Source of the DNA: Sedimentisphaerales bacterium
GTDB taxonomy: Bacteria > Planctomycetota > Phycisphaerae > Sedimentisphaerales > SM23-30
NCBI GenBank assembly: GCA_963667715.1
Contig: OY763926.1
Span: 213,486-277,485 of the forward strand
Direction of reading: 5' to 3'
DNA: 64,000 nucleotides
Part shown: positions 4,547 through 53,899 of the stretch, piece by piece
Numbering within the stretch: the stretch's first letter is position 1
How the letters are laid out: each line of letters begins with the position of its first letter
Translations under genes and position numbers: made by a program
Notes under the pieces: model-generated
The model's input: the letters and a program-made list of their open reading frames with translations, nothing else
What the model was told of the DNA's origin: nothing
Database searches by the model: none

Positions 4547-5129
4547 GTTTGATGATGTTTTTTTATAGACGGGATAACTGCCCGGGTACGGGCTGGATTT
4601 TGGAGCCAGCTCCGATTTGTCGGAGACAGATTATGTTTGGTTTAAATATGTTTGGTAATGTTATACCTTCCTGGGCTTCGGGGGAGGAGAAGATTTTTTA
4701 TCCACAGATTTATTGTAATGGGTTCGCTGGGGCGAACAGGTGGTTGATTAATTGGCACAGATTTAAGAAGAATAATTTAGAAGAGGATTTCACGCAAAGA
4801 CGCGAGGTGCTTCGCACCCGCAAAGGAAGAAGAAGATTGCTAGGATGCGAGGATTATCAGGATAAGAAGAAGAGGAAGAGTTATTTCTCGCAGAGCTCGC
4901 GGAGGCGCAGAGGGAAGGAAATTTAATAATAAGAGTTTTAACGCGATGGTACTGAGAGTTGGTTGGCAGGTGTGGGTGTTAGTGAGTTTATGATTTGGTT
5001 GGAAAGTAAGGAAGAAGACTTAAGAATCCCGACGTGTATCGGGAAACTCTTGCGCGGGGAGATGGTTGGGCGAGGCTTATTAATCAAACTGAAGTTTGTA
5101 CTCTTAAAGCTTCGCGTTTTCTTTTTCCT
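4547..5129 (+). repeat. Mosaic intergenic cluster C1 (modules M1, a, f, g, h, j)
   Basis: Module a (CCACAGATT..GGTTCGC-n-GCGAAC..TTGATTAATT..CACAGATTTAAGAAG) is at 4701-4770. Module j (GGAAAGTAAGGAAGAAGACTTAAGAATCCCGACGTGTATCGGGAAACTCTTGCGCG) is at 5001-5056. Confidence 0.85.
4556..4699 (+). repeat. M1 element copy A (long form); candidate structured RNA/ssDNA element
   Basis: GGGATAAC, then hairpin GCCCGggtaCGGGC, then CTGGATTTT. Overlapping hairpins follow (GGAGCcaGCTCC and CTCCGAtttgTCGGAG), then CAGATT. The terminal hairpin is CCTTCC..GGGAGG followed by T6. Confidence 0.6.
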
Positions 5130-6632
5130 TTATGGGATAGTTATTATGTTTGTGGTGGAAGGGGTTGGGGTTGGCAGGTTGGATTTGCAATGTGGGCATT
5201 GGTTTTTGTTTAGCCATCTGCTTTTGCCGCAGTTGTGGCATATTGTTAGTGGGTAGTGGTTGAAGATGAGGTATGTTGCCAGTCCGGCGATATTGAATGA
5301 GTAGATCAGTATTGCCCAGCCGGCGGTTTTGATGATAGATCTTTGTCGGTTGCGAGTGTGGGCCAGCATAATAAAAACGCATATGACAGAGGCGGCGCGG
5401 AGGTACCATAGTGTCCAGAACGGTAGAACGGTGCCGGGTAAGTTGTGAGAGTTTATGGGGAGAATGAGATAGCCGGGTATGGTAGCGAAAAAGTAAGGTT
5501 GTATGTTGGCAGGTGATCTGCGGGTCCATAGTTTGTTATATTGGTGTATTAGCTGGGCAGAGCGTAAGTCGCCGGAGAGCTTATATAGTCGGTGCGGGTT
5601 TTTGCTGACAATATTGGTAGTGCGGCCGAGCTCTTTATTGGTTATGTATTTTATGATTAGTTCGTCGGATTCCTGTGGGGTGATGCCGCACTTGAATCTT
5701 GGGTCTTCGATGGTATTGATGTAGATGTTTTTGCGGTTTATGTCAGTGTATAGATTGTATGCCTGCTGGCTGTAGTCGATGTTGTCGAGGGCGATGTGGG
5801 TTATGATGGGCTGGGTGTTGGTGAGTTTAACAAAAGCCGGAGATATGTCATTGTAAACAACAAATAATCTGTCGGGAACGTGTATTGACTCTTTTTTGAC
5901 ATTGTCAGCGGTGAAGATCTGCCAGTCGATGATCTTGCTGGTTAGGCTGGCGGGAGTGAGCTGTATACGCTCTCTGGTGCTGAAGTCTGTCTGGTATATG
6001 CTTTTTCCGTCGCAGCTGAGCATGAGCATATGTCTTTTGTTGTTCTGGTCTTTTATCGCCCAGAAATATTTTTCGTTCATACTGAATCTGCCGGCGTCGG
6101 CTGAGTTGGCGGCGAAGCCGTTTATGCCGTAGTGGCCTACAATTTGTTTGTCCAGATATCCGGTAAGGGTCTGGTCATTATCGTTATAGCACCAGATGAC
6201 GATACCGTTTTCGGTTTCAGTTGGTATGAGTTTTTCGTCCAGGGTGTTGCCATTGTATTGGTAGCCGCCCGCCATGATTCTGTACTTGCGCTCTGGTGCG
6301 GAGTATTGGAGTATGTCGGCGTCGGTTAGGTGGTCTACAGGTGATAAGGTGTCCTGCTGTGGGTCGTATATTTCGTAGGTGTTTTTGTTGTCTAGCATTT
6401 CTGAGATAAGCAGCTGGCCGGTGGTTGTATAGCCGATTTGTGAGCAGGAAACCTTCCACTGGTTCTCAGTGATATCTATTAGTGGCGATAGTGCCTTATG
6501 TGATGGTGGGCTATAGCGATAGCCAGTGTAGTTTGCAATAATGATTATGCAAATACAAATGATGATGTATATAGCTATTGAGAATATAAGGTTTCGACAT
6601 ATAACGCTGTAGTATTTTAATATGTTAAACAT
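5130..6632 (-). CDS. Hypothetical membrane protein: N-terminal TM anchor, large extracytoplasmic domain, C-terminal TM bundle and CxxC..CxxC zinc ribbon
   Basis: Long ORF. I moved the start from the track's TTG (6653) to ATG 6632 (MFNILKYY...). The C-terminus reads ICHNCGKSRWLNKNQCPHCKS. It is the last gene of the gntR/ABC cassette. Confidence 0.6.
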   Translation of the reverse strand: MFNILKYYSVICRNLIFSIAIYIIICICIIIIANYTGYRYSPPSHKALSPLIDITENQWKVSCSQIGYTTTGQLLISEMLDNKNTYEIYDPQQDTLSPVDHLTDADILQYSAPERKYRIMAGGYQYNGNTLDEKLIPTETENGIVIWCYNDNDQTLTGYLDKQIVGHYGINGFAANSADAGRFSMNEKYFWAIKDQNNKRHMLMLSCDGKSIYQTDFSTRERIQLTPASLTSKIIDWQIFTADNVKKESIHVPDRLFVVYNDISPAFVKLTNTQPIITHIALDNIDYSQQAYNLYTDINRKNIYINTIEDPRFKCGITPQESDELIIKYITNKELGRTTNIVSKNPHRLYKLSGDLRSAQLIHQYNKLWTRRSPANIQPYFFATIPGYLILPINSHNLPGTVLPFWTLWYLRAASVICVFIMLAHTRNRQRSIIKTAGWAILIYSFNIAGLATYLIFNHYPLTICHNCGKSRWLNKNQCPHCKSNLPTPTPSTTNIITIP

Positions 6633-6648
6633 GTTAGTCTCTACTTTG

Positions 6649-6700
6649 CTCAAACTGAGTGTTGGTGAGTTTGAGATGATTTAATGATTAGTTGAATCAG
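6649..6700 (+). repeat. Solo left-end fragment of the X (CTCAAACTG) element
   Basis: CTCAAACTGagtgttggtGAGTTTGAG followed by TTAATGATTAGTTGAATCAG. This matches the left part of X1/X2. Confidence 0.5.
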
Positions 6701-6716
6701 CCTGGTCAGGTTGGTG

Positions 6717-7409: not shown

Positions 7410-7433
7410 GGCGATCGTCCTTGTTGGGTATTG

Positions 7434-7460: not shown

Positions 7461-7624
7461 TGTTATACATTTTTTATTGAAAGTCTACTATAAGGCTGAT
7501 TATTCCTTTTATAAGGAAGAAGACTAAAGAACCGGCTAATCGAGCCTATGGTTAAAAGATAAAGTCTAAATTTTTTGTAACTTTCATTTTATAATTCTTG
7601 TTACGTTTTGCAATGTAAGGCTAT

Positions 7625-7654
7625 GAATCACAAGCAAGATGCTTGTGCTACTTA
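7625..7654 (-). repeat. Class-1 REP S1
   Basis: GAATCACAAGCaagatGCTTGTGCTACTTA; on the minus strand this reads TAAGTAG-CACAAGC...GCTTGTG. It lies 1 nt from the stop of the ABC ATPase gene. Confidence 0.75.
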
Positions 7655-7655
7655 A

Positions 7656-8579
7656 TTAGGTTTCCCATGAGAATAGTTTTCTTTTGGTTGGCGAAATTGT
7701 GTATTCGATGAATTGGTCTTCCAGTGTCATTTGTGCTTCTGAATGGAGCTGTGCATTGTTGGTTGAGCACCAGTTATTGAGCGTGTCGTCGGAAACAGAT
7801 ACCAGTACAGCCTCAATCATATTGCCGTCCTTTCGACAATGGAGCATGCCGGGAATTTGTACTTCGTTTTCTGGAGTCTGGTTGAATTTTAGGACGACTT
7901 TTCTTACAGCGTTGCGGAATTCTTCCATAGTGCAGCGGGCACGCAGCTGGCCGTTATCGAGAATGGCTATGTTGTCAGCTACGCGTTCGACGTCGCTGAG
8001 TATATGGCTGGAGAACAGGATAGTTCGTCCTTCACGCTGGATGAGTTTAATTATGCCCTCGAGGAACTGACGTCTGACAACTACATCGAGGCCGAGGGTA
8101 GGGTCGTCCATGATAAGTATTTCGGGGTCTGGCGCGAGTACCATAGCGAGAGAGACCTGGGCCCGCTGGCCGTTAGAAAGTTTTCTGATCTTTTTCTTTT
8201 TCGATAGTTCAAAGAACTCGATCATTTCTTCAAACAGGTTATTATCCCAGCGTTGTGGGTAGAATGCAGCCTGATATTTTCTGAGAGCTTCGATCGACAT
8301 GCTATCGAAAAGTTTGTGTCCTTCGTTAATGTAGCCGATACGTGCGATCAGGTCGGGGGTGAGGTTGTTGCTGTCTTGGCCGTCGATGTAACAGCGGCCG
8401 CTGGTTGGTTTAGCGAATCCGAGCAGCATACGAATGGTAGTGCTTTTGCCTGCACCGTTTCTGCCGAGCAAGCCGAAGATGCTGCCTTTTGGGATCTGTA
8501 AGTTCAGATGATCGACCACTGGGGTAGTGCCGTAATATTTGGTAAGGTTCTGTGTTTCGATTGCGTATTCGCTAGTCAT
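7656..8579 (-). CDS. ABC transporter ATP-binding protein (ABC-2/DrrA-like)
   Basis: Walker A GLLGRNGAGKST, signature LSNGQRAQVSLA, Walker B ILIMDDPTLGLD. The start is set at MTSEYAIE, giving an 8-nt overlap (ATGACTAG) with the gntR stop. Confidence 0.85.
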   Translation of the reverse strand: MTSEYAIETQNLTKYYGTTPVVDHLNLQIPKGSIFGLLGRNGAGKSTTIRMLLGFAKPTSGRCYIDGQDSNNLTPDLIARIGYINEGHKLFDSMSIEALRKYQAAFYPQRWDNNLFEEMIEFFELSKKKKIRKLSNGQRAQVSLAMVLAPDPEILIMDDPTLGLDVVVRRQFLEGIIKLIQREGRTILFSSHILSDVERVADNIAILDNGQLRARCTMEEFRNAVRKVVLKFNQTPENEVQIPGMLHCRKDGNMIEAVLVSVSDDTLNNWCSTNNAQLHSEAQMTLEDQFIEYTISPTKRKLFSWET

Positions 8580-8988
8580 TGCTATTGCCTTCCCTGTTCT
8601 GGCCATTTTTGAATTTAGTCAGCCTCTGTTCAAATAGTTCTGTTATTTGCTTATGACTTAATCCCAGGTTGACAGCCTGTGAGATGATATTATCGAGTCG
8701 CTCGTTTATAATGTTTATCTGCTGGATATCGCGTGAGCTGGAGGTTGGGTTATTTATATAAGTACCTGCCCCTTTGCGAGTTATGACCAGTTCTTTTTGT
8801 TCGAGAGTCGTATATGCTTTGGCAACAGTGTTTGGATTGACAACGAGCTCGGCAGCGAGCTGACGCACCGCTGGCAGCTTATCGCCGGGCTGGAGCTGGC
8901 CCATGGCAACCATCTGCTCTATCTGGTCGACTATTTGTTTGTAAACGGGCTCTTTACTACCCGATGAGATCTGTATCCAAATTGCCAT
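8572..8988 (-). CDS. GntR-family transcriptional regulator, short YtrA-like subtype
   Basis: 138 aa. Winged-helix block: PVYKQIVDQIEQMVAMGQLQPGDKLPAVRQLAAELVVNPNTVAKAYTTLEQKELVITRKGAGTY. Confidence 0.85.
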   Translation of the reverse strand: MAIWIQISSGSKEPVYKQIVDQIEQMVAMGQLQPGDKLPAVRQLAAELVVNPNTVAKAYTTLEQKELVITRKGAGTYINNPTSSSRDIQQINIINERLDNIISQAVNLGLSHKQITELFEQRLTKFKNGQNREGNSND

Positions 8989-9009
8989 TATAAGCTCCGC
9001 ATGATACGA

Positions 9010-9587: not shown

Positions 9588-9620
9588 AAGAATCACAAGC
9601 GAGGACGCTTGTGCTACTTA
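9588..9620 (-). repeat. Class-1 REP S2
   Basis: AGAATCACAAGCgaggacGCTTGTGCTACTTA. The TAA stop of the 9618-10388 gene is the TAA of TAAGTAG. Confidence 0.75.
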
Positions 9621-10388
9621 GGGGATGGTTATTATGTCTTGTACTTTGTATTTTTTTAGTAGGTCGGTGATGGTGGTTGAAGTTTTTATTTTTTTTAGGC
9701 CGTCGTTGAATTTTTCGAGCTTGGAGTTTATGTCTTTAGCTTTTTTTGAGAATGCGATGAATAGCTCTTTATTGTCTAGTATTGGTTTGACGATCTCTAC
9801 TTTTTCCTTTGACGGGGCCATGACCTTGTCGTTTTCGATGCAGTAAAAAGCGACAAGCGGGTCGACGATAATGACGTGCGCTTTGCCGGCGAGTAGGTTC
9901 TGGATGTTTGACAGGTCGTCCTTGGCTTCGATCTTGGTGAGATAGTCGGCGTTGTCGATCTCCTTAGTGTTGATATAGCCGGCGACGACACCGATTTTGT
10001 ATGGTTTCAGCTCTTCGACTTTACCGGTATAGTTGAACTCGGTGGTCTTAAGCTTCATGAAGGTGAGTGGGCCGCAGATGATGGGGTCTGAGAAGATAAA
10101 CTCCGATTCGAGGTCTTTATTGTAATATTCGGGGTAATAAGCGTCTGCGTTACCGATCCGTGCGAGATCGACGCACTTTTCCCATGGCAGGAAGAAGACC
10201 TGGACGTCTGATTCGCCGGCGGCTTGATATGCGGCCTTGATGATCTCGGTAACGAACCCGTTTTCAGGGATGTTTTTGCCGACGTAAGGCTGCCAGTCGA
10301 GGGAGGTTAGCTTAATCTTTTCGGCTGAAGCGAATGTGGTTAATGTAAATATGGTCAGGAAAGTAGCGAATATTTTTGTCAGGTTCAT
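9618..10388 (-). CDS. Periplasmic substrate-binding protein, family 3 (PBPb-like)
   Basis: Signal peptide MNLTKIFATFLTIFTLTTFASA. LTSLDWQPYVG..GFVTEIIKAAYQAAG is typical of family-3 solute-binding proteins. Confidence 0.65.
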   Translation of the reverse strand: MNLTKIFATFLTIFTLTTFASAEKIKLTSLDWQPYVGKNIPENGFVTEIIKAAYQAAGESDVQVFFLPWEKCVDLARIGNADAYYPEYYNKDLESEFIFSDPIICGPLTFMKLKTTEFNYTGKVEELKPYKIGVVAGYINTKEIDNADYLTKIEAKDDLSNIQNLLAGKAHVIIVDPLVAFYCIENDKVMAPSKEKVEIVKPILDNKELFIAFSKKAKDINSKLEKFNDGLKKIKTSTTITDLLKKYKVQDIITIP

Positions 10389-11316
10389 AATTTTGGTCCG
10401 TAAAAGGTTAAAGGTAAAAAGTTAAAGGTTTTATGTTTACCTGTATTATGTATCGTGTGATATTTGGCGGGACTTATGGCGGTTGGTGGGAGATGGTTGA
10501 TTATGGGGCGGCTGGTTGTGGGTTGGAGTGAGTAGGGTTATGGGTAAGTGGTTTGTTGATGGGAGGTTATTGGGATTGATAAGGTGAGAGCGGTGTATGG
10601 TGGGGCGGGTGGGTTATCGGACGGATTAGGGTGGGAATAAATGATTGATATGGGTGGGTGAATGTGGATAATATGTATGATTGTAAAAGGTAAGAGTAGT
10701 TGTCCACAGATTTGTTGAAAGGGGTTTGCTGCCGCAAACGCTGATTGATTAATTTACGCGGATTTAAGAAGAGGAGTAATTAAGAAATATATTTACCATG
10801 AAGTTCATGGAGATCTTAGTGACGGTCGAGCCGCAACCAAAAGTTTTATGTAAGAAGAGAATTAAGAGTTTAACGCAAAGTCGCCAGGTCGCAAAGAGTT
10901 GGTTGGCGATTGGGGGGGGGGAGATGATGGCAGTATGAAGAGTTTTTTGGGGAACCACAGATGAACACGGATGAACACCGATAAGGGGAAGTTGGGGAGA
11001 TACAAGATACATAGCAGCCGTAAAGGGGGGAAGAAGGAAATGGCTAGGATGCGAGGGTTTTTAGGATAAGAAGATTAAGAGAAGAGTTGGTTCTCGCAGA
11101 GGCGTGAAGATTTGGTTGGAGATGTGGGCGTTGGGGAGTTTGTGGTTTTGTTGGAAAGTAAGGAAGAAGACTTAAGAATCCCGATGTGTAACGGGAAACT
11201 CTTGCGCGAAGGGTTGGTTGGGAAGCTGCTTAGGAGACGCAAGATTTTGCGTCTCTACGTGGGGGGATGGTTTTTTTTTGGAAGTAGATAAACGAGAATG
11301 AATAGAAGAAACGAAG
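10389..11316 (+). repeat. Mosaic intergenic cluster C3 (AAAGGTA repeats, G/T-rich tract, a, b, c, g, h-variant, j, class-2 REP)
   Basis: Module a is at 10703-10772 with a compensated stem, GTTTGC..GCAAAC. GGTTGG/GGGTGG-rich DNA spans ~10440-10700. Confidence 0.8.
11233..11258 (-). repeat. Class-2 REP R2-1
   Basis: GGAGACGCAAgattTTGCGTCTCTAC; the minus strand reads GTAG-AGACGCAA..TTGCGTCT. Confidence 0.7.
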
Positions 11317-12927
11317 ATGACTAAGAAGAATAAGAAAAGTAGTAAGGGGCTGCGTCGTTATCTGGCGCGGATCGATACTGGCCGGATGGGTCATATATTT
11401 ACTGATTGTGTGGTGATCGGAAGTGGCGTTGCGGGGCTGCGAGCGGCGATAGAGGCTGCGAAGGCAGGTAATGTTATACTGATGACCAAGGGCGAGGTGC
11501 CGGACTGTAATTCGTTCTATGCCCAGGGCGGGATCGCGGCGGTGGTGCGTGTCGATGATAGTTTTGAGTCGCATATATCTGATACTCTAAATGCTGGCGG
11601 CGGGTTGTGCGAGGTTGATATAGTTAGTAAGGTGGTGCGGGAAGCGCCGGAGCATATGCGTGAGCTGCGGGAGTGGGCGACGCCGTTTGATATGAAAGAT
11701 GGTGAGATCGATGCCGGGCGTGAAGGAGGTCATACGAACTATCGGATAGCACATGCTCATGGTGATGCGACTGGTCGTGCGATGGTAGAAGCGTTGTGGG
11801 GGCAGGTGAAGGCGAATCCCCGGATAAAGGTGTGGGAGGAGTGTTTCAGTATCGACCTGTTGACGAATGAGGGTCGGTGTGTGGGGGTAGTGAACTGGCA
11901 TAATAAGTATCGGATGCAGTGCTGTTGGGCAGGTTGTGTGGTGTTGGCTAGTGGCGGTGCGGGCAGGTTATGGCGTGAGACGACTAACCCGGAGGCTGCG
12001 ACTGGTGATGGGCTGGCGATGGCGTGGCGTGCGGGAGCTGAGCTGGCTGATCTGGAGTTTATGCAGTTTCATCCGACGACTCTGTATATAGCGGGAGCTG
12101 AGCGGACACTGATAACTGAGGCGCTGCGTGGTGCGGGAGCTAAGCTGGTAGATGGCGAAGGTCGACAGTTTATGCAGGATTATCATGAGATGGGTGAGCT
12201 GGCGCCGCGTGATATAGTTAGCCGGGCGATCTTTGACGAGATGGCGAAGACGAAGGCGACTAGTGTGTATTTGGATATGCGTCATCTGGGTCGCGATTTT
12301 GTGGCGAAGAAGTTTCCGACGATAAGTGCGTTGTGTAAGTCGTTTGATATTGATGTTGAGACTGATCTGGTGCCGGTTCGGCCGAGTGCTCATTATATGG
12401 TGGGCGGAGTGAAGACAGATATAGAAGGGCGTACGAATCTGGCGGGTCTGTATTGCTGTGGCGAGGTGGCGTGTACCGGGCTCCATGGTGCGAATCGGCT
12501 GGCGAGTAATTCGCTGCTGGAGGCGCTGGTGTTTGGTAAGATATGCGGGGAGGGAGTGTGTAAGGAGCTGGCGGAAGGGGTGACGGCGGCGATGTATCCG
12601 ATGAACTATGAGATAGCAGAGTCGGAACGGACGCGACTGGATGTGCCGGATGTGGTGAATTCGCTGAAGGCGCTGATGTGGCGTAATGTGGGGCTGGCGC
12701 GTGAGGAGAGCCATCTGGCGGAGGCGATCGAGATAATTGAGTTTTGGCATAGGTATGTGATGGATAAGGTGTTCGATAGCCCGGGCCAGTGGGAATGTCA
12801 GAATATGCTGACGGTGAGCTATTTGATAACGCAGCTGGCGCTGGAGAGGCAGGAGTCGCGAGGTGTGCATTTTCGGTTGGATTATCCGGAGGTGCAGGAG
12901 GAATATGGGTATCATTCGCGGGTGTGA
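11317..12927 (+). CDS. nadB: L-aspartate oxidase
   Basis: FAD motif VIGSGVAGLRAA; also YAQGGIAA, RPSAHYMVGGV and GLYCCGEVACTGLHGANRLASNSLLE. The start may be the internal ATG (MGHIF). Confidence 0.92.
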   Translation: MTKKNKKSSKGLRRYLARIDTGRMGHIFTDCVVIGSGVAGLRAAIEAAKAGNVILMTKGEVPDCNSFYAQGGIAAVVRVDDSFESHISDTLNAGGGLCEVDIVSKVVREAPEHMRELREWATPFDMKDGEIDAGREGGHTNYRIAHAHGDATGRAMVEALWGQVKANPRIKVWEECFSIDLLTNEGRCVGVVNWHNKYRMQCCWAGCVVLASGGAGRLWRETTNPEAATGDGLAMAWRAGAELADLEFMQFHPTTLYIAGAERTLITEALRGAGAKLVDGEGRQFMQDYHEMGELAPRDIVSRAIFDEMAKTKATSVYLDMRHLGRDFVAKKFPTISALCKSFDIDVETDLVPVRPSAHYMVGGVKTDIEGRTNLAGLYCCGEVACTGLHGANRLASNSLLEALVFGKICGEGVCKELAEGVTAAMYPMNYEIAESERTRLDVPDVVNSLKALMWRNVGLAREESHLAEAIEIIEFWHRYVMDKVFDSPGQWECQNMLTVSYLITQLALERQESRGVHFRLDYPEVQEEYGYHSRV

Positions 12928-13530
12928 ATGTAGGGGGGGGATTCACAGATTTTTTGAAAGGGGTTCGCTGGGGCGAACAGCTGATTGATTAATTAACGCG
13001 GATTTAAGAGGGAGAATAATTAAGAAATATCTTTACCATGAAGTTCATGGAGATCATGAAGAGGGAAGAATTAATATAAGAGTTTAACGCAAGGGTGCTA
13101 AGTCGCAAAGAGTTGGTGGGCGACTGGGGGGGAGTTTGAGATGGTGGCATTGAGAAGAGTTTTTGTGAACCACAGAGGACACAGAGAAATAAGAAGAAGA
13201 AGGGTTTCACGCAAAGGGGCAAGGTGGTTGGTGCCCGCAAAGGGAGAAGAAAGAAAATTGCTAGGATGCGAGGATTATTAGGATAAGAAGAAGAGGTATT
13301 TCTCGCAGAGCTCGCGGAGGCGCAGAGGGAAGAAAGTTTAATAATAAGAGTTTTAACGCGAAGAGATGGTTAGGGTGTATAGTGTTGGGGAGTATATTAT
13401 ATGGTTGGGAAGTAAGGGAGAAGACTAAAGAATCCCGATGTGTATCGGGAAACTCTTGCGCGGGGGGGGAGAAGGGAGACGCAAGATTTTGCGTCTCTAC
13501 GGATGGGGTGGTTGGTGGGGTTGTGAAGAT
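12928..13530 (+). repeat. Mosaic intergenic cluster C4 (a, b, c, d, e, f, g, h, j, class-2 REP); the most complete copy
   Basis: Module a is at 12942-13012, starting 15 nt after the nadB stop. All modules appear in the canonical order. Confidence 0.85.
13475..13500 (-). repeat. Class-2 REP R2-2
   Basis: GGAGACGCAAgattTTGCGTCTCTAC. Confidence 0.7.
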
Positions 13531-13569
13531 AAAAAAAAGGCTCGGTAGTTGGTGCTGCCGGGCCTTTTT
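13531..13569. terminator. Bidirectional intrinsic-terminator-like hairpin
   Basis: A8-GGCTCGG..CCGGGCC-T5, 23 nt downstream of the stop of the 13592-14524 gene. The stem has one mismatch/wobble. Confidence 0.5.
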
Positions 13570-13591
13570 GTTTGGTTGGGGGTTGGGGTGG

Positions 13592-16970: not shown

Positions 16971-17368
16971 TAGAAGAGGAGAATTATGAGTTTAAGGAAA
17001 GGGCGCGAAGACGCAAAGATTTGGTTGGCAATTTTGGGGTGGTTGGAGATGGTGGCATTGAGAAGATTTTTTACCACAGAGGGCACAGAGAACACAGAGA
17101 AGAAGAATTTTTTGCAGGGATAGAGGATAAGAAGATGATAATCAGGATAGCGAATTAAGGTTATTGACCTGCAAAGTTCGTGTGCTTTTAACGAGAATGT
17201 AAAGTGCGATTATTTAGCAAGTTAGATCGAATGTGAAAAATAATGACACATAAAAAACAAGAAAATGATGGATAGTAGTGCAGAGGGAAGAAAATATAAT
17301 AATAAAATGTCAGGTTGTTGTGTAACTTATATACCAGGTTATTTGAGTTGGTTGGGGAAGTTATATTG

Positions 17369-23276: not shown

Positions 23277-23306
23277 AAACTTATTGACCGATGGTGAATA
23301 AGTTTA

Positions 23307-23384: not shown

Positions 23385-23413
23385 TTTATATGGTTGGAGA
23401 AGTATATATATTA

Positions 23414-23446
23414 AGAATCACAAGCAAGGATGCTTGTGCTACCTTA
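23414..23446 (-). repeat. Class-1 REP S6
   Basis: AGAATCACAAGCaaggatGCTTGTGCTACCTTA. The stop codon of the 23444-24031 gene lies in the flank. Confidence 0.7.
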
Positions 23447-24031
23447 TTGTTTTGCATTATCGGTATTTTCTGATTCTGACTGTTTGGCTTTAAGTTCGGT
23501 GATCGCGTTTTCCAGTTCTTTGATCTTTGCTACCAGGTCAGCGTTTTGCTTCTGGAGTGCTTCGATCTGAGAGGAAAGTTCGGTATTTTTTGTTTGAGAG
23601 ACGTTTAGCTTATTTTGCAGCTCAACGGATTTTTGGGTTTGCTGGTCGCTGTCGGTTTTAGCGTTAGCGAGATCCTGGGTAATATTTGCGACTTTTGCTT
23701 CATAGTCTTTGCATTTATTATTGAACTCTTTGATCTGCTGAGCGGCATTTGCGAGTTTTTCTTTTAGTTCGGTAGTGGCCAGAGTCATTTTATCCTGGAT
23801 TTTGCCTATTTTATCACTTTGCTCGCTAATAGTCGCTTTGAAAGCCTGAGCCTGGGCCTGAGCCTGCTTGGTGCAGTCTTGATTTTGCTCCATAGAAGAA
23901 GCGAGTATGCTTTCCATCGCATCGATTTCCGCTTCGAGCAGTGTGTTTTGCTCCTGACACTGGATTAGGGGCTTATTATCACAGCCGCCAATAGACAGCG
24001 CCAAAATTGCAAGTAGACAGATTTTTTTCAT
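23444..24031 (-). CDS. Coiled-coil lipoprotein (hypothetical)
   Basis: Lipobox MKKICLLAILALSIGGC. The remainder is Q/E/K/A-rich heptad-like sequence. Confidence 0.6.
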   Translation of the reverse strand: MKKICLLAILALSIGGCDNKPLIQCQEQNTLLEAEIDAMESILASSMEQNQDCTKQAQAQAQAFKATISEQSDKIGKIQDKMTLATTELKEKLANAAQQIKEFNNKCKDYEAKVANITQDLANAKTDSDQQTQKSVELQNKLNVSQTKNTELSSQIEALQKQNADLVAKIKELENAITELKAKQSESENTDNAKQ

Positions 24032-26419: not shown

Positions 26420-26588
26420 TTTATTAAACTAGTAAACTAGTTTAATAGTAAAAGGTAAAAGGTTTGAGGATTCGCCCTTTGGGGCGAGGCTGATTAGTAG
26501 TTTTGACCACAGATTACAGACACTTATTCGTAAAGATGATGGTGGTAAGTCAGGATTTGTGGTAGAAGTAAAATAATAATATAAAAAT

Positions 26589-26616
26589 GTAGAGGCGCAA
26601 TAAAATGCGTCTCTAC
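26589..26616. repeat. Class-2 REP R2-5 (GTAG on both strands)
   Basis: GTAGAGGCGCAAtaaaaTGCGTCTCTAC, 32 nt upstream of ymdB. Confidence 0.65.
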
Positions 26617-32014: not shown

Positions 32015-32147
32015 CGTTTTTAGAGGGGCTAACCGACCGCCTGGGGCGGACTGGATCTTGGAGCCAGCTCCGGTTTATCGGAGACAGATTGTAGTAAGAG
32101 GCGGTAAAGAGTATAGATGTTTCATTCCCGTATTGCGTGGGAATACG
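32015..32147 (+). repeat. M1 element copy D (long form, stand-alone, ~150 nt upstream of the capD-like gene)
   Basis: GGGGCTAACC, then GACCGCCtggGGCGGAC, then CTGGATCTT, then GGAGCcaGCTCC/CTCCGGtttaTCGGAG, then CAGATTG. The terminal hairpin ATTCCCgtattgcgtGGGAAT has a different stem sequence from copies A and C. Confidence 0.55.
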
Positions 32148-32300
32148 TTAAAAAGTCGCATGCGATATGTGATTTAGGCCCGATAATGTTATATTTTACT
32201 TAATGATAGCGGAGCTTTTTGATAGAATAGAAATTAGAACATTTTCCATTTAGATTAATCAAGATTCTAATTTTTATATCTCTAAAGAGCTCAATATTTT

Positions 32301-40513: not shown

Positions 40514-41290
40514 ATACACCTGTATTTATTAGTTGTCAAGTGATGTGAAAAAAAATTTCTACCTATATTACCTTATCCGACTAACATGATATTTATAGGT
40601 TAAGATAAAGTCTGTTTTACTATTAATGAGGTATGAATATTGGTTAAAAATGGATTATTAACCGATAAAAAACTATTTTCTTGTTTATGTTAACGTGGTT
40701 TATGCCGATTTTGGTAAAGAAGGCAAGTTGGAGGTGTGCTTTAACCAAAAAGAGTTACCAATATGCCATTAATGGTTCAATTGTCCAATTTTATTTGTAT
40801 TGTCCAATTGTTATAATAAAAACATACTTAAGTGAATGGAGAGTATTTTAGAAAGATAGTAGATAGGCGTTCTGACCTGTATAGAGAATAGAGAATTGTG
40901 GAGAGGCTTGCGTTTTCTGCAGTATTTTAAATTATCTGCATAAAAGCAAACATGCGTATTTTTGTCTTATTGTATATTTCGAGTACATTGCACCCGTATT
41001 ATATTGCAAGTACTGTTTTCTGGTTATGAGATGTATAATAAGTAGTAATCTGTCGAAGCGGCAGTAATCCCCCTCCGATTTCATTCCCCACAGCATTTAT
41101 CCGCCTGATTTTATTGTGCGATTTAGCATTTTTAATTGTTCAGTATTTTAAGCAAAGCCAGTATTGGCGATTTCATAGAGATTAGAAGTGCTAGAGTATA
41201 TTTAATTAAGAATTGTTTAGAGTAGGATCCTGACGGAGTTGTATCAGTCAGTCCTTGGTTTACCTATATATTTGTACTAGGAGAAATGGA

Positions 41291-44257: not shown

Positions 44258-44319
44258 AGTAAGTAATAAGTAACAAGTAACAAGTAACAAGTAACAAGTA
44301 ACAAGTAACAAGTAACAAG
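44258..44319 (+). repeat. Heptamer microsatellite (GTAACAA)n, about 6 perfect plus 2 degenerate units
   Basis: GTAAGTAATAAGTAACAAGTAACAAGTAACAAGTAACAAGTAACAAGTAACAAG. Confidence 0.85.
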
Positions 44320-44355
44320 TTCAGGTTCCGCCCTTTGGGCGAGGCTGATTAATTA

Positions 44356-44515
44356 CTCAAACTGACCGACTGTCAGTTTGAGAGGAGTTAGTATTTAGGA
44401 TTTAGCAATTAGTTGAATAGAATGACTTCAAAAACTAATTACAAACCACCAATCATTAAGCCCTTTGTTGATAGTGTATTACAATATACAAACTGAAGTT
44501 TTCGGTCAGTTTGAG
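44356..44515 (+). mobile_element. MITE-like element X1 (160 bp, 14-bp terminal inverted repeats)
   Basis: Left end CTCAAACTGACCGA, right end TCGGTCAGTTTGAG. Each end also folds locally (CTCAAACTG..CAGTTTGAG). TTAATTA flanks both sides, a possible target-site duplication. Confidence 0.6.
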
Positions 44516-44572
44516 TTAATTATTAGTTATTTGCTTGTGCATGCCTCCATATGAATTTGTAAAGTTCATTAT

Positions 44573-47006: not shown

Positions 47007-47394
47007 GGCGAAAGAACCTTTCCGTAATATTGCCAACGATCCGCCAGGAAAAACCAAACCATTATGGCGGAATAATTGCAAATAAGAGTAATCGGAAGCG
47101 AGCTTCCTTAATCCTATCCTTGACAACCAGCTAAATTTTAATACAAGAAAGTATAAGTGTCCAATAAAATATTGGCGTGCTTTGAATATGTTCGGATAGT
47201 AGAGTGCAAAAACTTTAATTAATCCACATGTTATCCACATGTTATTTAAATATGTGTATTAATTAAGGTTATGGGTGGGGGTATAGCCGAGAATTAATTA
47301 ATTTTTCTCGGTGTTGTATGTAAGTTGTTAAGAAGTTTTCCACATGTTATTAACTTTTAAACAGAGATTCCTGTGAGATTGTGTTAGGAATGGT

Positions 47395-47785
47395 GAGTTT
47401 TCCACAGATTTAGTCCAAGGTGTTCGCTACCGCGAACTGCTGATTGATTAATTTACACAGATTAGAGTAGGAAGAGAAATAGGAGTTTAACGCAAGGACG
47501 CGAAGACGCAAAGGGTTGGTTGGGAAATAAGGAAGAAGGCTGGAGAATCCCGATAAATCGGGAACTCTTGCGTGGGGGGAGTGGGTTGGCGATTTGGGTT
47601 GGTTTGGATGAGATGCGTGGCTTTTTATTTGTATTCGCTTTGCTCATGGCTTGGAAATCAAACTAAAGGGTGTGTTGCCTAAAAGAGTAAGTCAGAATAT
47701 TGTGTAACTTATACACCAGATTCATTGAGATGGTTGGCAAAGTTATACCAAGAATCACAAGCGAGGACGCTTGTGCTACTCATGG
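47395..47785 (+). repeat. Mosaic intergenic cluster C11 (a, c, j, S8)
   Basis: Module a is at 47401-47470. Module j has loop variant TCCCGATAAATCGGGA. Confidence 0.8.
47751..47782 (-). repeat. Class-1 REP S8
   Basis: AGAATCACAAGCgaggacGCTTGTGCTACTCA; the stem and loop are identical to S2. Confidence 0.7.
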
Positions 47786-49848: not shown

Positions 49849-52023
49849 TTATTCCATATCAAAACAATCTGGATACTGAGCACAGTCTAGCCAATGGCCA
49901 GCGAAAACTGCGAAGTCGAGGATGTCAACGCGGCAGTCTTCGTGTAGATCGAACATAGTGTCAGGTTTGAGAGACTGGATACAGATATCATCGTCTGGGT
50001 TCAGAGCGTGATAGTTCTGAGCAATAGTCATTTCATCCATAGGATAGTTGTAGATCTTGATTTCGTCAAGAGCACCAACGTAGTAGTTCTGACCTTCGAG
50101 AATCTTACCAATAGAAAGAGCAGTAGAGTCAGTAGCAACAGTACCAGCGTTAGCAGTAGCAGCAGCTTCGAGCTGACCGTCAACATAAACCTTCATATCG
50201 CCAGAGTCAAGATCGCGAGTAGCAACACAGTAGTGCCATACATCGTCATTGATAACCTTGCCAGAAGAGATGGTTGTGCCGTCAGAGCCAGTACCGTAAC
50301 CGAAGCCAGAGCCGCGAACAACAGTACCAAAGTCAGGGACAAAACCGCCCATTTCGCCGTCAACCAGACCTCTACCTTCCCACCAGCCGCCGGTGCCGCC
50401 AGTAACGTCAGGAGTAGTCTTAACCCACATTTCGATAGTGTAGTTATGGCGAACCATACAAGCTATTTCAACGTGTTTGTTTTCGTCAGCAATGTACTGG
50501 ATAGCGTTACCAACTTTACCAGTAGTGTAGCTCATAGTAGTTTCGGTGATGATAGGGTCAGCGTCAGCAGGGTATTCTGTATAGTAAGCAGCACCATCGT
50601 AGTTACCAGTTTCGTCGGTAGTATCATCTTCGAAAGCATAATAAGCAACCAGCTGTTCAACTTCCATAAGAGCAGTGTTTGAAAGAACAGGGATGTTACT
50701 TTCATTAACAACTGAGCAGTAGTAGTAACCCTGGTTGTCAGTAGTAATGCCATCAAGAGTCATAGTGGCAGAACCAGAATCAACGATAACGTCATCTTCA
50801 GGAGTTTCAGTAGAATCATCTGGAGTATAGTACCAGGTGTAAGCCTGTTCAGAGATACTCTGGCTAGAGATAGTCATTTCAGCAGTGCCGCCAACAGGAG
50901 CAAGAGTGAAGTCTGGCTGGTCAGTAATGACAGGTACAGAAGCCTGAGTTTCGAAATACCATAGTTTGCCAGTTTCAACGTTAGGATCGCCAGGACCGTT
51001 GTCGGTTAGAGCTTCATCAATACGCCATGTGTATATGCCGTCGAGATTGAGGTCGTCGAAAGTAACAGAAGCACCATCACCAGTAGCAGCGAAAGTAGAA
51101 ACATATACCAGGTTAGGATCGCTGGCAGTGTTGTGGTCTGGGCTCATGTATAGGTGATGTTCAATGACAGCTGGGTTAGGGTTTTCTGGGTTAGCAGGGT
51201 CCAGAGCGGTCTTCCAGCTCATAGTCAGAGTGACTTTTTCGTTAGCATTAACATCACCAACGAGAGTGTCGCCATTAGCAGGAGAAGCACCCCATGCAGT
51301 CTGGCTGGTGTTAGCGATAAGAGCATTGTTGCTGGCATCAGCACCATAAGCAAAGATATCGCTAACCTGATCATCAGTAAGAGCGTCATTATAGATACGG
51401 AAGTCAAGGGTCTTACCGTTGTAAGTAGGATCTTGCCAAGCAGAACCACAGTTAATACCGATAAGGTTAGTGAAAGATTTCAGGTCGAAATTAGCTTTTT
51501 CAACAGTCTGAATCAAAGTACCATTATTGTAAGTTCTGAAGCTTGTGCCGTCAAAAGAGAGAACAAGCTGCTGAGGGCCGGTAGAACCGATAAGATTGTC
51601 ACCATAGATGAGAGAAGAAGCACCGTCAACTCTGATATCAGCACCCCAGTTATTGTCAGGAGCATCACCACGGTCAGCACAGGCGATGATGTAGTTTGTC
51701 TGGTTAGAAGCGGTAAAGGCAAATATACCCTGCCAGTTACCTTCGATAAACCCTTCAGTCCAAGATTCGATAGTAAAAGCAGTATCGATCTCAGCGATAG
51801 CAGAAAGAGGCAGGCCCGCACCGCCAGTAACATTGGCTGGCGAAGCTGTTCCGTCTGTGACCAGAGCACCGCCTGTAACAACACCTATGTCACCGAGAGT
51901 ACCATCAGCAGAGCCGATAGAGTCAGTTACGCCGTCATTGAATTCATAGCGGTGAATCAATTCGGCGTTTGCCATAGTGCTCATACCGGCCATAGCAAGC
52001 ATTAACAACATTAATTTTTTCAT
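49849..52023 (-). CDS. Secreted LamG / Ig-like / LamG protein with C-terminal dockerin-like module (paralog of 41291-43603)
   Basis: Start at MKKLMLLMLAMAGMSTMANA behind AGGAG. YYCSVVNESNIPVLSNTALMEV is Ig-like. YTIEMWVKTT, DDVWHYCVATRD, VYVDGQLE and LDEIKIYNYP mark the second LamG domain. The tail is DLHEDCRVDILDFAVFAGHWLDC. Confidence 0.8.
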   Translation of the reverse strand: MKKLMLLMLAMAGMSTMANAELIHRYEFNDGVTDSIGSADGTLGDIGVVTGGALVTDGTASPANVTGGAGLPLSAIAEIDTAFTIESWTEGFIEGNWQGIFAFTASNQTNYIIACADRGDAPDNNWGADIRVDGASSLIYGDNLIGSTGPQQLVLSFDGTSFRTYNNGTLIQTVEKANFDLKSFTNLIGINCGSAWQDPTYNGKTLDFRIYNDALTDDQVSDIFAYGADASNNALIANTSQTAWGASPANGDTLVGDVNANEKVTLTMSWKTALDPANPENPNPAVIEHHLYMSPDHNTASDPNLVYVSTFAATGDGASVTFDDLNLDGIYTWRIDEALTDNGPGDPNVETGKLWYFETQASVPVITDQPDFTLAPVGGTAEMTISSQSISEQAYTWYYTPDDSTETPEDDVIVDSGSATMTLDGITTDNQGYYYCSVVNESNIPVLSNTALMEVEQLVAYYAFEDDTTDETGNYDGAAYYTEYPADADPIITETTMSYTTGKVGNAIQYIADENKHVEIACMVRHNYTIEMWVKTTPDVTGGTGGWWEGRGLVDGEMGGFVPDFGTVVRGSGFGYGTGSDGTTISSGKVINDDVWHYCVATRDLDSGDMKVYVDGQLEAAATANAGTVATDSTALSIGKILEGQNYYVGALDEIKIYNYPMDEMTIAQNYHALNPDDDICIQSLKPDTMFDLHEDCRVDILDFAVFAGHWLDCAQYPDCFDME

Positions 52024-53059
52024 TTCCGATCTCCTAATCAAAAAATCAAACCATGCATAACCAGACAGAACCAATCTGCTAACTTATGCATAAATATTTA
52101 ACACAATCCAAAATAAAAAACCAAAGACTAATACACTATGCTGACATGCTTAGAAAAAAACAGGCGAAAGCCAGCAAAGCCCAAGAGTCTGAATTTAAAT
52201 AGAACATCGCATTGAAACGAGAGATATGTCCTCTTTCCTCAATAGACTATTAATATAGTCAGACACAATAATGACGAGAGCCAGATTTAAAAAAGAAAAA
52301 TTTAAACATGACTAATGCCAAAATAATGTCAGATGCTCTTTGCTATTTAAACCAATACTTAAATTCAATTAATGTTGCGCAGTATCAGAAAGGATCCTGC
52401 TGAAAAAAAAGTCGATTTACAAAACGTATAAAATAGAAAACAACCAGAGAAATACGATTTGTAAGAAGTCCTCTATGATTTCTCTAACTTCATTTTTTAT
52501 TATAACAACTGTACAATTAAAACCTATAGGACTTTTGTGACAAATATAGGACAAATCGCCCCTTTATGGTTAAAATGTTGCTTCTTATGGTTAAATATCG
52601 TCAAAAACAGGTATGTCTGGTAGGAAAAAAATAGAAAAACAGGTGAATTAATGGAAAATATGCGCAAAATGGTGTGTTTTGGTTAATTTTTAGCCATATT
52701 GTCAGGTATTATTGTGCTAGAAAGGTTTGTTAAAGAGCAAAAAAGCAGGAGTGATATTCGGTGGAATTGATTATATAAAAGTAGTAAAGGGAATAGATGA
52801 GTGATATGCGCGCAGAAAAACACCCGCCCTGGTATACAGAACAGGTGTTAAACCGTATTTCGATGACCCTGCCGGATTAGGGGCAGGTTATCTCAATGAC
52901 TTCCTTGTCGTAATGCACTGGAAGTGCAAAGTGCGGCCCTGCAAATAAACATAGTAACCTAAGAGGCTACAGGTTGGTTAAGCTATGGATTGCTTTTTTA
53001 TAAATAGCTATAATATAGTTATTTATAAGAGTTAAAGGCAAAGTTAGCTTAACTACTGC

Positions 53060-53137
53060 TTATTTGTGGTGACGAGCTTTCCAGCGAGCTTTTCTTTTCT
53101 TGCTGCCAATTTTACGACGGCGTCTTGATTTACCCAT
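53060..53137 (-). CDS. Candidate 25-aa highly basic small protein (MGKSRRRRKIGSKKRKARWKARHHK), possibly ribosome-associated (bS22/Thx-like class)
   Basis: Below the ORF-track size cutoff. ATG is preceded by GGAG at 7-nt spacing. 16 of 25 residues are K/R/H. It begins MGK like small basic ribosomal proteins. Confidence 0.4.
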   Translation of the reverse strand: MGKSRRRRKIGSKKRKARWKARHHK

Positions 53138-53224
53138 AATAATCTCCAAATTTTATCAAAAGTTATATACATTTGCTTGTCAACAAAATAGAGTTCCATA
53201 TAGTAACAGAGGGGGTTGGGTAAT

Positions 53225-53899
53225 GCAAGGGAAAAAGTTGTGAGGGTGGATTGTTTGGTGATTTGCGAGGGTGAGAATGAGGAGAAGGAAGAGTTTTTTA
53301 TCCACGGATTTATTTAAATGGGTTCGCTGCCGCGAACTGCTGGTTGATTAATTTACACAGATTTAAGAGGGAGGATTAAGATGTATTTACCATGAAGTTC
53401 ATGGAGATCTTAGGGCGGTCGAGCCGCAACCAAAAGTTTAATGTAAGAAGAGAATTAAGAGTTTAACGCAAAGACGCAAGGTCGCAAAGAGTTGGTTGGC
53501 GATTGGGAGTTAGTTTGAGATGGTAGCATGAAGAATTTTTTGCAGGGATTAGAGGATGAGAAGATGATAATAAGGATAGCGAATTAAGGTTATTAATCTG
53601 CAAAGTTCGTGTGCATTTTAACGAGAATGTAACGTGCGATTATTTTGCAAGTTACATCGAATGTGAAAAATAATGAGACATATAACACAAGAAGTTGATG
53701 GATAGTAGTACTGAGAAGAAGAGGAGTTCGCGCAAAGGAGGGGAGGGGAATTAAGAAGGTAAAGAATTAAGGCTAGTATGCTAGGATTTTTAGGATAAGA
53801 GGGAGAATATTTTTTGCGTAGCTGGCGGAGGGGGAAAGGAAGAAGACTAAAGAATCCGATGAATCGGGAACTCTTGCGCGCGGGGGGGGGGAGATTGGG
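53225..53899 (+). repeat. Mosaic intergenic cluster C13 (a, b, c, d, g-variant, i, g, j)
   Basis: Module a is at 53301-53370. Module i is at ~53575-53705. Module j has loop variant ATCCGATGAATCGGGA. Confidence 0.85.

Follow-up and report, generated by a model that had tools for sequence, protein, structure and literature searches.

Repetitive extragenic palindromic (REP) sequences are defined by a GTAG tetranucleotide 5' of an imperfect palindrome, and a REP-associated tyrosine transposase (RAYT) gene flanked by REPs constitutes a REPtron (PMC3333891, PMC6006769). RAYTs cut and rejoin single-stranded REP DNA, and their IS200/IS605 relatives enter the lagging-strand template (PMC3333891, PMC6006769). 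REPs of the GTAG type occur in Planctomycetes (PMC3733652). Here we describe a family of composite, non-coding intergenic repeats in a 64-kb stretch of the Sedimentisphaerales bacterium contig OY763926.1 (positions 213,486 to 277,485; hereafter the window), which also carries a REP/RAYT system. The repeats are assembled from one ordered set of modules and are wholly co-oriented with the G-rich strand. Our analysis covers the window and 24 loci from relatives annotated as Sedimentisphaerales or Phycisphaerae, with NadB 85-71% identical to that of the window; those referred to individually are L001, L018, L019, L020, L023 and L024.

Other bacterial repeats come close to this family in one property or another. 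Bacterial interspersed mosaic elements (BIMEs) are REP pairs or arrays of alternating orientation with short linkers, usually <300 bp. Rhizobium-specific intergenic mosaic elements (RIMEs) and the small non-coding repeats of Deinococcus are lineage-specific mosaic intergenic repeats made of palindromes and other motifs. BOX elements (boxA-boxB(n)-boxC) and MITEs (miniature inverted-repeat transposable elements) are likewise intergenic.

An ordered, co-oriented repeat family

Self-BLAST of the window returned 454 same-strand high-scoring segment pairs against 28 opposite-strand ones, the latter tracing to palindromic sequence or hairpins, to the tandem arrays that occupy 1-2159 and to a single pair of paralogues. 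An initial annotation, made from the letters of the window, had proposed that 13 intergenic regions are built from a single set of modules. Direct-repeat depth is 7-17 over every one of these regions, and profile maps agree with the proposal. The nhmmer profiles were iterated from seeds consisting of the modules of that annotation together with sub-modules that we split off (b2, g2, i2 and k1-k3), at thresholds of E<=0.01 and E<=10. The set from which all 13 regions (clusters C1-C13; Table 1) are drawn comprises at least 15 ordered modules, with 6 copies of M1, 12 of a, 7 of b, 3 of b2, 13 of c, 3 of d, 4 of e, 11 of f (some of them cross-matches to c), 7 of g, 5 of g2, 3 of h, 4 of i, 4 of i2 and 12 of j.

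At E<=0.01, every copy of M1, a, b, b2, c, d, e, f, g, g2, h, i, i2 and j lies on the + strand; at E<=10 the sole - strand matches are to the palindromic hairpin within module j, and the palindromic k1 and k2 alone match both strands. More than 100 non-palindromic module instances on the + strand stand against 0 on the - strand, as had been claimed for all recognised copies, and the 13 of 13 clusters on one strand correspond to a two-sided binomial p of ~2e-4. Degenerate patterns give the same picture, since a 23-nt pattern for module a (TGATTGATTAATTNNCRCRGATT) and a 22-nt pattern for module j each had 12 matches, all on the + strand, with 0 expected. The 12-nt reverse match noticed earlier at 47891 is present.

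A single linear order fits 343 of the 360 ordered module-pair instances. The modules are therefore colinear as proposed, the further statement that they are not reordered being slightly too strong: the exceptions concern M1, modules duplicated within C5, C7 and C12, and the placing of j relative to k1, which are found as j-k1 in C5 and C12 and as k1-j in C10. Alignments between copies extend over 200-570 bp at 69-96% identity with module order conserved, and this disposes of the worry, raised with the original proposal, that the similarity might be mere low-complexity purine richness. An assembly artefact is likewise ruled out by the divergence of the copies, their unique flanks and alignments of hundreds of bases. 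Coding potential was also rejected, as frames are not conserved and frame-breaking indels separate the copies; the long stop-free frames lie on the C-rich - strand and are a compositional effect. Elements are found between genes of every arrangement, whether convergent, divergent or tandem in either direction, and no inverted match was found between cluster ends, that is, no terminal inverted repeats.

The 13 clusters sum to 7,942 bp, or 12.4% of the window, and to ~15% together with the arrays at 1-698 and 1336-2159, which is less than the fifth estimated by eye. Their + strand is G-rich, as had been stated (G 0.28-0.35, C 0.09-0.15). Genes on the two strands of the window are about equally frequent, and GC skew is positive in all 1-kb bins (0.02 to 0.49). 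Intergenic DNA makes up 25.8% of the window and ~16% of the relative L001, as estimated from its spacer list.

A search of Rfam 15 gave no match at gathering thresholds and, at E<=1, only a spurious plant microRNA model, in the REPtron array described below. The exact module a core had 0 matches in the viral, GTDB-representative and JGI metagenome collections, a result that divergence explains and that does not imply absence elsewhere: in the relatives the core reads TTTTGATTAATT, not TGATTGATTAATT, and exact-pattern scans are blind to these copies because the sequence has diverged. The + strand of C4 folds no better than shuffled sequence (z -1.9), and the z-score of -6 for the - strand is due only to palindromes.

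Table 1. Repeat clusters, partial and solitary copies, and REPtron components, in window coordinates
Feature	Coordinates	Strand	Composition and setting	Basis
C1	4561..5073	+	M1-a-f-g-h-j; between hsdR stop (4546) and 3' end of - strand gene	nhmmer map
C2	9108..9620	+	M1-a-b-c-j(truncated)-k3-k1 REP; REP abuts stop of - strand gene 9618-10388
C3	10703..11258	+	a-b-b2-c-g-j-k2 REP; upstream of nadB
C4	12942..13500	+	a-b-c-d-e-f-g-h-j-k2; most complete single series; 14 nt past nadB stop
C5	14773..15340	+	a-b-c-g2-b-j-k3-k1 REP, then degenerate k2
C6	16740..17436	+	a-M1-c-d-e-g2-i-i2-k1-k2
C7	19808..20744	+	a-c-M1-c-d-e-g2-i-f-g-g2-i-i2-k1-k2; longest (937 bp), internal duplication
C8	27618..28100	+	a-b-b2-(heptamers and hairpin)-c-j; spacer between ymdB and next gene
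C9	34329..34691	+	a-c-j-k2; 9 nt past capD-like stop; k2 REP holds stop codon of - strand gene 34688-37417
C10	43756..44030	+	e-f-g-(i2 fragment)-k1-j; without module a; j hairpin swapped for CCGGC..GCCGG
C11	47401..47782	+	minimal core a-c-j (47401-47595, ~195 bp), then i2, k1 REP
C12	49176..49774	+	a-(b-like)-M1-c-g-h-c-j-k1; 10 nt past mscS stop
C13	53301..53892	+	a-b-b2-c-g2-i-(f-like)-g-j; right end abuts stop of 195-aa - strand gene
Partial copy	7510..7654	+	j-like fragment 7510-7541 and solitary k1-type REP 7622-7654, abutting stop of - strand gene 7656-8606
Solitary k1-type REP	23410..23447	.	overlaps stop of - strand gene 23444-24031; GTAG on - strand
Module-a-like motif and k2-type REP	26470..26616	+	hairpin, GCTGATTA, CCACAGATTA, and k2-type GTAG REP 26589-26616; rny-ymdB spacer	inspection and alignment
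Solitary M1	32017..32160	+	upstream of capD-like gene
Partial copy	61492-61524		hairpin-less M1 remnant (GACAGGATAAC-AGGATTTTT-CGACAGATTG)
REPtron left arm	1..698	.	3 tandem 234-bp units
RAYT-like HUH Y1 transposase gene	714..1331	+	205 aa; HUH motif in PNHLHVIL; Tyr with Asn at +4 in YRDYIIANK
REPtron right arm	1336..2159	.	3.5 tandem 232-bp units, content as in left arm

Module anatomy and relative age

The left boundary of the element is sharp, unrelated flanks that often end in a T run switching to TCCACAGATT, so that the core begins (T)nATCCACAGATT. The initial annotation placed the start of module a within ~15 nt of the stop codons of nadB (11317-12927), the capD-like gene and mscS, and the measured distances are 9-14 nt. 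More generally, five clusters start 0-14 nt past a + strand stop codon and have the native terminator of that gene beyond them (C4, for example, lies upstream of a bidirectional terminator, a native hairpin at 13531-13572); to the left of eight clusters there is no + strand gene. The DNA at 10389-10700, included in the region originally assigned to C3, is unique, G/T-rich and outside the repeat.

Module a (~70 nt, mean identity 83%) reads TCCACAGATTT-N8-GGGTTCGCT-NNN-GCGAAC-N-GCTGATTGATTAATT-NN-CACAGATTTAAGA, and its 6-bp hairpin is retained in 97% of cells. The right end of the core, module j, consists of GTAAGGAAGAAGACTNAAGAA, a hairpin, AACTCTTGCGCG and then GGGGAGTTGGTTGGCGA. The hairpin is TCCCGAT..ATCGGGA in most copies and CCGGC..GCCGG in C10 and in the fragment at 7512, and an extra GGCCGG is found in module j of C8 and C9. 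This a-c-j core is present in nearly all copies, the smallest of which spans ~195 bp (C11). Modules b, c, e, f, g and h each comprise about three tandem 7-10-nt units (CATGAAG, CGCAAAG, CACAGAG, AGGAT, CGCAGAG) separated by AAG-rich spacers. Module i is a 132-bp AT-rich block (17154-17285, 20218-20349, 20462-20593 and 53583-53715), present only where a - strand gene starts to the left of the cluster; three of its copies carry the - strand promoter-like arrangement TTCACA-17-AATAAT, and its 3' part is conserved in L018 and L024.

Identity between copies is 83-86% for the core modules a, c and j and 92-95% for the less frequent inner modules d, e, g, g2, h and i. By this measure the core appears to be the older part, and the inner modules to be subsequent additions, which spread to fewer copies. 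Kinship among the clusters is mosaic: C6 and C7 are 91-96% identical over 560+317 bp (~880 bp), the left part of C4 is nearest to C5 and its right part to C1, while C13 is nearest to C3 on its left and to C7 on its right. Recombination or gene conversion between copies is thereby indicated. Homopolymer G runs of 7-11 are found at module junctions, after c and after j (10910, 12933, 13125, 13463, 27935, 53881), and are candidates for sites of slipped-strand length variation.

Module a opens with the DnaA box consensus TTATCCACA, perfect in C1, C7 and C12 and matching at 8/9 positions in C2, C3, C6, C11 and C13. The window contains 33 DnaA-like boxes with <=1 mismatch, where 18.5+-4.4 would be expected, and module a accounts for 8 of them. 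Perfect boxes number five in the 64 kb (4698, 10663(-), 19805, 47231 and 49173), three of which occupy the first bases of a module a. Four box-like sites on the + strand also lie within 190 bp upstream of C11, forming a cluster at 47220-47406.

Module M1 contains three hairpins, in which the differences seen from copy to copy are compensatory. Over 40-80 nt at its 5' end it matches one of the terminal inverted repeats of a ~265-300-bp MITE found in OY759675.1 and JAFGDI01, two Sedimentisphaerales metagenome-assembled genomes in which this repeat occurs as inverted pairs. No inverted partner of M1 was found in the window, where M1 is a one-ended MITE derivative that stands before module a, after it, or alone (32017). 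A sequence like the M1 remnant of 61492-61524 (Table 1) is found in L024 at ~13000-13040 on the - strand, which is the G-rich strand there.

The REPtron and the dispersed REPs

The repetitive region at 1-2160, which had been listed as an array at the 5' end of the window, is a REPtron. Its RAYT-like product matches the NCBIfam model REP_Tyr_transpos at E 6.4e-21 (74.8 bits, below the cut-off of 80) and Pfam Y1_Tnp at 22.8 bits (cut-off 23), and it aligns with E. coli TnpA_REP (PDB 4ER8) at E 1.6e-4 with the HUH (NHLHV) and Tyr..Asn(+4) (YIIAN) motifs in register. The gene thus has both the Y1 HUH and Tyr/Asn(+4) motifs and the flanking cognate REPs expected of a RAYT: 14 exact REPs (TAAGTAGG[AT]CAAG) of alternating orientation lie on its two sides (115-695 and 1336-2148). 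Each 232-234-bp unit of the arms combines an inverted pair of GTAG REPs (a REPIN) with a fragment resembling the C-terminus of HsdS, which ends ..KSILQKAFSGELTK* and has its stop codon inside TAAGTAG, the REP tag. Just after the REPtron, at 2168, begins hsdR, a type I restriction gene.

The terminal REP (k) of the dispersed elements is a genuine GTAG-type REP. Read on the - strand, k1 is TAAGTAGCACAAG..CTTGTGATTCTTA; it has 9 dispersed copies and shares its tag and stem base with the REPs of the REPtron. A second GTAG REP, k2 (GTAGAGACGCAA..TTGCGTCTCC), is present in 5-7 copies. Both are repeated, extragenic, imperfect palindromes of 20-40 nt with GTAG 5' of the stem, and in all asymmetric dispersed REPs the GTAG is on the - strand, the C6 copy being symmetric. 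Inverted REP doublets, as in REPINs and BIMEs, were found only inside the REPtron arrays, the dispersed k1 and k2 being singlets. A k1-type REP is also present in four unrelated metagenome contigs of higher GC content, none of which has modules a-j, and no RAYT homologue was found on these contigs. Thus k1 and k2 are REPs of the ordinary kind, for which the RAYT is a plausible enzyme.

Filled and empty sites and the age of the modules

The nadB flanks are short and element-free in relatives with NadB 85%, 78% and 76% identical to that of the window. A block consisting of rny, ymdB, a gene for a 1213-1261-aa protein and the capD-like gene is syntenic in L023 and L024, and a comparison of its spacers, which the initial annotation had suggested as a check, supports insertion or expansion: the spacer from ymdB to the next gene measures 60 bp in L023 and 209 bp in L024, against ~635 bp in the window, where it contains C8. 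C8 thus occupies a filled site, and the corresponding sites of L023 and L024 are empty. The element has been amplified, and spacers have expanded, in the lineage of the window.

Gene order has changed at the elements as well. In L001, L018, L019 and L020, nadB directly precedes a run of genes for a 19x-aa protein, a 33x-aa protein, a DAC-domain protein, an ABC ATPase, an MFS transporter, a methyltransferase and poly(A) polymerase. The 195-aa - strand gene to the right of C13 is the one that adjoins nadB in relatives, and in the window 41 kb (12928-53899) separate nadB from the block containing the DAC and ABC genes. The junctions of this stretch are two element ends, the left one of C4 and the right one of C13, so that element ends mark synteny breaks.

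In short spacers of L018, L020 and L024 (NadB ~71% identical), profile and BLAST searches detected single, diverged module copies, namely three of a, besides b, b2, i and an e-like unit. Their module a is 61-80% identical to the window copies, compared with 72-93% within the window, and the b, b2 and i homologues keep their relative order. These copies lie on the locally G-rich strand in 7/7 cases, antisense to the neighbouring genes, and are not purine-rich there. Relative to GC skew, the rny-ymdB block of L023 and L024 is inverted compared with the window. Because placement on the G-rich strand is kept while the orientation of gene blocks relative to skew differs, polarity follows skew and not gene order. 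Its putative tie to the direction of replication rests on this co-orientation with GC skew, throughout the window and in 7/7 diverged copies from three genomes. Modules a, b, b2 and i predate the genome of the window.

Comparison with described repeat families

The likeness to BIMEs noted in the initial annotation is apt. Like the BIME and REP-RAYT systems of Enterobacteria and Pseudomonas, the family is an intergenic, high-copy, non-coding mosaic of motifs with GTAG-tagged imperfect palindromes; it is accompanied by a single RAYT-like HUH Y1 gene with REP flanks, and its REPs abut or overlap stop codons. The REPtron also resembles that of P. fluorescens, in which REPINs form tandem arrays that include flanking sequence (PMC3116915). 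Unlike a BIME, however, the element has 0-2 REPs, singlets in one orientation, at one end of 0.2-0.95 kb of non-palindromic ordered modules, and modules a-j, the bulk of its length, are without a GTAG hairpin.

With BOX the element shares ordered modules, conserved ends, a variable inner number, intergenic location and lack of coding capacity. There is no sequence relation, and BOX has three module types in at most ~350 bp, whereas at least 15 types in up to ~950 bp are found here; to our knowledge, BOX has not been described as strictly strand-polar. RIMEs and the Deinococcus repeats, whose sequences were compared only via Rfam, are ~60-215 bp long with few modules, and we know of no report of absolute strand polarity for either. 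MITEs are similarly short, non-autonomous and intergenic, but the a-k element lacks terminal inverted repeats, and M1 is always on the + strand, inside or beside elements.

The properties shared with IS200/IS605 and the derived palindrome-associated transposable elements (PATEs) are the lack of terminal inverted repeats, the lack of an evident target duplication (none was seen by inspection at the elements) and same-strand hairpins near both ends. One-strand orientation is shared too, as expected for single-stranded DNA insertion into the lagging-strand template (PMC6006769, PMC3333891). In contrast to IS200/IS605, the left and right hairpins are unrelated here, no constant flanking tetranucleotide is evident and the ends are not the best conserved parts. 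The similar left and right subterminal hairpins that mark PATEs were not found, given the unrelated hairpins of a and j, and the RAYT gene is the only one of its kind in the window, where no gene for an IS200-type TnpA or TnpB was seen. A chromosomal integron cassette array (attC) was rejected, as there is no integrase among the annotated genes and the flanking genes are housekeeping genes (nadB, ilvBN, rny, ymdB) on both strands.

The element functions most like a very large BIME, while the defining features of BIME, BOX and IS200/IS605 are each lacking. Its size, number of ordered modules, absolute polarity and the presence of its building blocks in other genera set it apart from described families; REP/RAYT systems, including GTAG REPs in Planctomycetes (PMC3733652), have been described before. 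The suspicion of an undescribed system holds in part only, since REP/RAYT is known, M1 comes from a MITE, and a, b, b2 and i predate the genome.

Proposed origin and alternative explanations

The most likely explanation is a lineage-amplified, BIME-like composite repeat that is copied between spacers in a strand-specific manner. We propose composite non-coding repeats of ~0.2-0.95 kb, each copy being a colinear selection from one ordered module set, in which an old a-c-j core would have gained younger inner modules (b, b2, d-i) and the MITE-derived passenger M1, often with one or two GTAG-type REP hairpins (k1, k2) to its right. Multi-module blocks would have been transferred duplicatively into other gene spacers, and the copies then reshaped by recombination or gene conversion between them, internal deletion and duplication. 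We suggest this combination of transfer and reshaping because of the mosaic kinship, the contrast between filled and empty sites and the differing ages of the modules. Recombination between copies and the existence, in the same genome, of a REP/RAYT system whose REPs stand at the right end of the element are established.

Transfer would be strand-specific, placing the same element strand always on the G-rich (leading-sequence) strand. The only well-established precedent for strand-specific block copying is HUH Y1 single-strand transposition at the replication fork (PMC6006769, PMC3333891), and the most likely mechanism would be movement of single-stranded DNA at the fork, catalysed by an HUH Y1 enzyme like the RAYT at 714-1331. 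Co-orientation may in addition be reinforced by selection against inverted repeats within one replichore. Expected consequences are longer spacers, 0.3-0.9 kb of DNA between + strand stops and their terminators, and recombination substrates that break synteny. We hold an HUH-type mobile repeat to be possible and adopt it tentatively, as several observations weigh against it. Modules a-j are not palindromic and have no GTAG at the foot of a hairpin, and nothing ties the RAYT to them. The hairpins of module a (GTTCGC..GCGAAC) and module j are unrelated, and the ends of IS200/IS605 elements do not differ in this way; covariation in the module a hairpin is negligible, with one compensatory change that 160 of 500 shuffles equal. 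The left flank is T-rich, with TTTA in 6/12 copies and TTGA, ATTA, TCAA, GGGA, GTTG or GTTT in the rest; no fixed tetranucleotide is evident. The ends a and j are less conserved than the inner modules, which is unexpected for the cis-acting sites of an active transposase. If GC skew is read in the usual way, the dispersed REPs carry their GTAG on the leading-strand template and not on the exposed lagging-strand template. Module a is 72% identical across genera in which NadB is ~71% identical, a figure that functional constraint fits as well as mobility. Finally, the window is a segment of a single replichore with uniformly positive GC skew, and direct orientation is known to prevail among repeats that share a replichore, on account of selection and of how they originate (PMC9297083).

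It is rather unlikely that the modules are instead selected cis-acting signals, that is, oriented sites of DNA or RNA binding or processing that are conserved across Sedimentisphaerales genera and were multiplied here by recombination. Candidates would be an oriented site bearing a DnaA box, a polar stop for head-on transcription, or protein-binding triplets of 7-10-mers. Such signals would account for the recognisable module a of two other genera (61-80% identity, despite NadB at only ~71%), the relative order and G-rich strand shared by the b, b2 and i homologues, the consensus DnaA box at the start of module a and the triplet 7-10-nt units of b, c, e, f, g and h. A - strand transcript would be C-rich and G-poor, a composition favoured by Rho, and module i has promoter-like hexamers on that strand. 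However, the DnaA-box match was spotted post hoc, most syntenic spacers of relatives function without any module, and the modules have no fixed relation to gene orientation. The inner modules are dispensable and freely variable, the + strand of C4 does not fold above shuffles (z -1.9) and belongs to no Rfam family, and a copy every 5 kb and a 12% share of the DNA are more usual for selfish amplification.

It is unlikely that nearby spacers were homogenised without a dedicated enzyme, in which case ordinary homologous recombination, gene conversion, and segmental duplications or translocations would by themselves yield direct repeats, and selection against inversions within the replichore would remove inverted copies. 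Mosaic kinship and the near-identity of neighbouring clusters (C6/C7, C4/C5 and C1/C2) agree with it, as does the coincidence of element ends with synteny breaks (the 41-kb stretch from the left of C4 to the right of C13). In bacterial surveys, repeats within one replichore are mainly direct through duplication and selection (PMC9297083), and in P. fluorescens tandem REP arrays are oppositely oriented on the two sides of the genome (PMC3116915). These processes leave unexplained how a block entered a spacer without prior homology (C8, between ymdB and the next gene), why a sharp common left boundary (TCCACAGATT) stands beside unrelated flanks, and why diverged modules of other genera lie on the G-rich strand despite inversion of the gene block relative to skew. 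Moreover, polarity is absolute here (>100 : 0), whereas the surveys report a bias only.

We regard as improbable a reading that joins selected signals with strand-specific copying, in which a, c, j and their companions would be order-wide, replication-oriented intergenic DNA signals (module a bearing a DnaA box or facing the replisome) that an undescribed single-strand copy mechanism multiplied into arrays of up to 1 kb.

Least probable is that the clusters are transcribed from the + strand, either into long or multi-part non-coding RNAs or as conserved untranslated regions. The five clusters that begin 0-14 nt past a + strand stop and precede the native terminator are probably co-transcribed as 3' tails, G-T pairs and swapped stems are tolerated in the hairpins of a, j and M1, and the purine-rich AAG-repeat spacers resemble the (ARN)n tracts bound by Hfq; but eight clusters have no + strand gene on the left, the modules of L018 and L020 are antisense to both neighbouring genes, G-T wobbles are expected anyway from the C-to-T bias of the strand, and neither Rfam nor folding lends support (no match; + strand not above shuffles; - strand z -6 from palindromes only).

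Other repeats and polar oligomers in the window

Purine-rich heptamer tandem arrays (TTAGAAA, AAGTAAC, AAGTGCA/G, GTAAAAG) are found at 23304-23352, 44261-44320, 57721-57797, 61427-61457, 55621-55653 and 56530-56565, and often precede a GC hairpin and GCTGATTA. They are purine-rich on the G-rich strand in both the window and L001, though the gene-to-skew orientation of the DAC/ABC spacer is opposite; given this strand bias in both genomes, the arrays seem to be regenerated strand-specifically.

A separate MITE-like repeat of ~200 bp is present at 44349-44523 and 57454-57656, with terminal inverted repeats CTCAAACTGACCGA..TCGGTCAGTTTGAG; the second copy holds two internal TCCCGATG..CGGGA palindromes, and termini like CTCAAACTGACC also occur in L018 spacers. 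Short spacers outside the element family contain a 41-nt direct repeat of 90% identity (GTAAGGTTGAAAG..GCGGTTTCTCGCTNCGCTCGA; 54542-54582 and 62569-62609). An inverted similarity between 42989-43536 and 49925-50475 (550 bp, 66%) reflects paralogues with Ig and Laminin_G_3 domains (41255-43603 on the + strand, 49849-52074 on the - strand). No tRNA or tmRNA genes were found in the window.

GC skew is very strong and uniform outside the elements as well (<=0.49 per kb), despite genes on both strands. Several oligomers are strongly polar in the window (+ : -), namely GCTGGCG (31:0), GAGCAG (50:1), GGCGGCG (27:1) and GGTTGG (40:2). At about one per 1.7 kb, GCTGGCG could be a polar signal similar to Chi or to FtsK-orienting polar sequences (KOPS). 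Polar oligomers of this kind within the elements were rejected as the cause of element polarity, GCTGGCG and GAGCAG being absent from the elements; of the skewed oligomers of the window only GGTTGG is enriched inside them.

Implications

Element sequence constitutes ~12% of the window, and spacers are about doubled relative to related genomes. Synteny breakpoints lie at element ends, and the elements are therefore probable drivers of rearrangement in the lineage of the window. They also complicate the assembly and annotation of Sedimentisphaerales genomes, the more so as their C-rich strand contains long spurious open reading frames. The diverged modules on the G-rich strand of other genera raise the question of whether these are oriented functional sites, such as DnaA boxes or polar terminators, or have long been carried along by an HUH enzyme that became domesticated. 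If a, c, j and their companions were indeed order-wide signals, they would form a new class of chromosome-structuring sequence, polar like KOPS, Chi and Ter, yet modular and 100 times larger. If, on the other hand, polarity flips at the origin and terminus, the family would be one of the clearest natural cases of a coupling between replication direction and the spread or retention of a large composite repeat, and it would extend the single-strand paradigm of REP/RAYT and IS200/IS605 from units of 30-300 bp to ordered arrays of ~1 kb.

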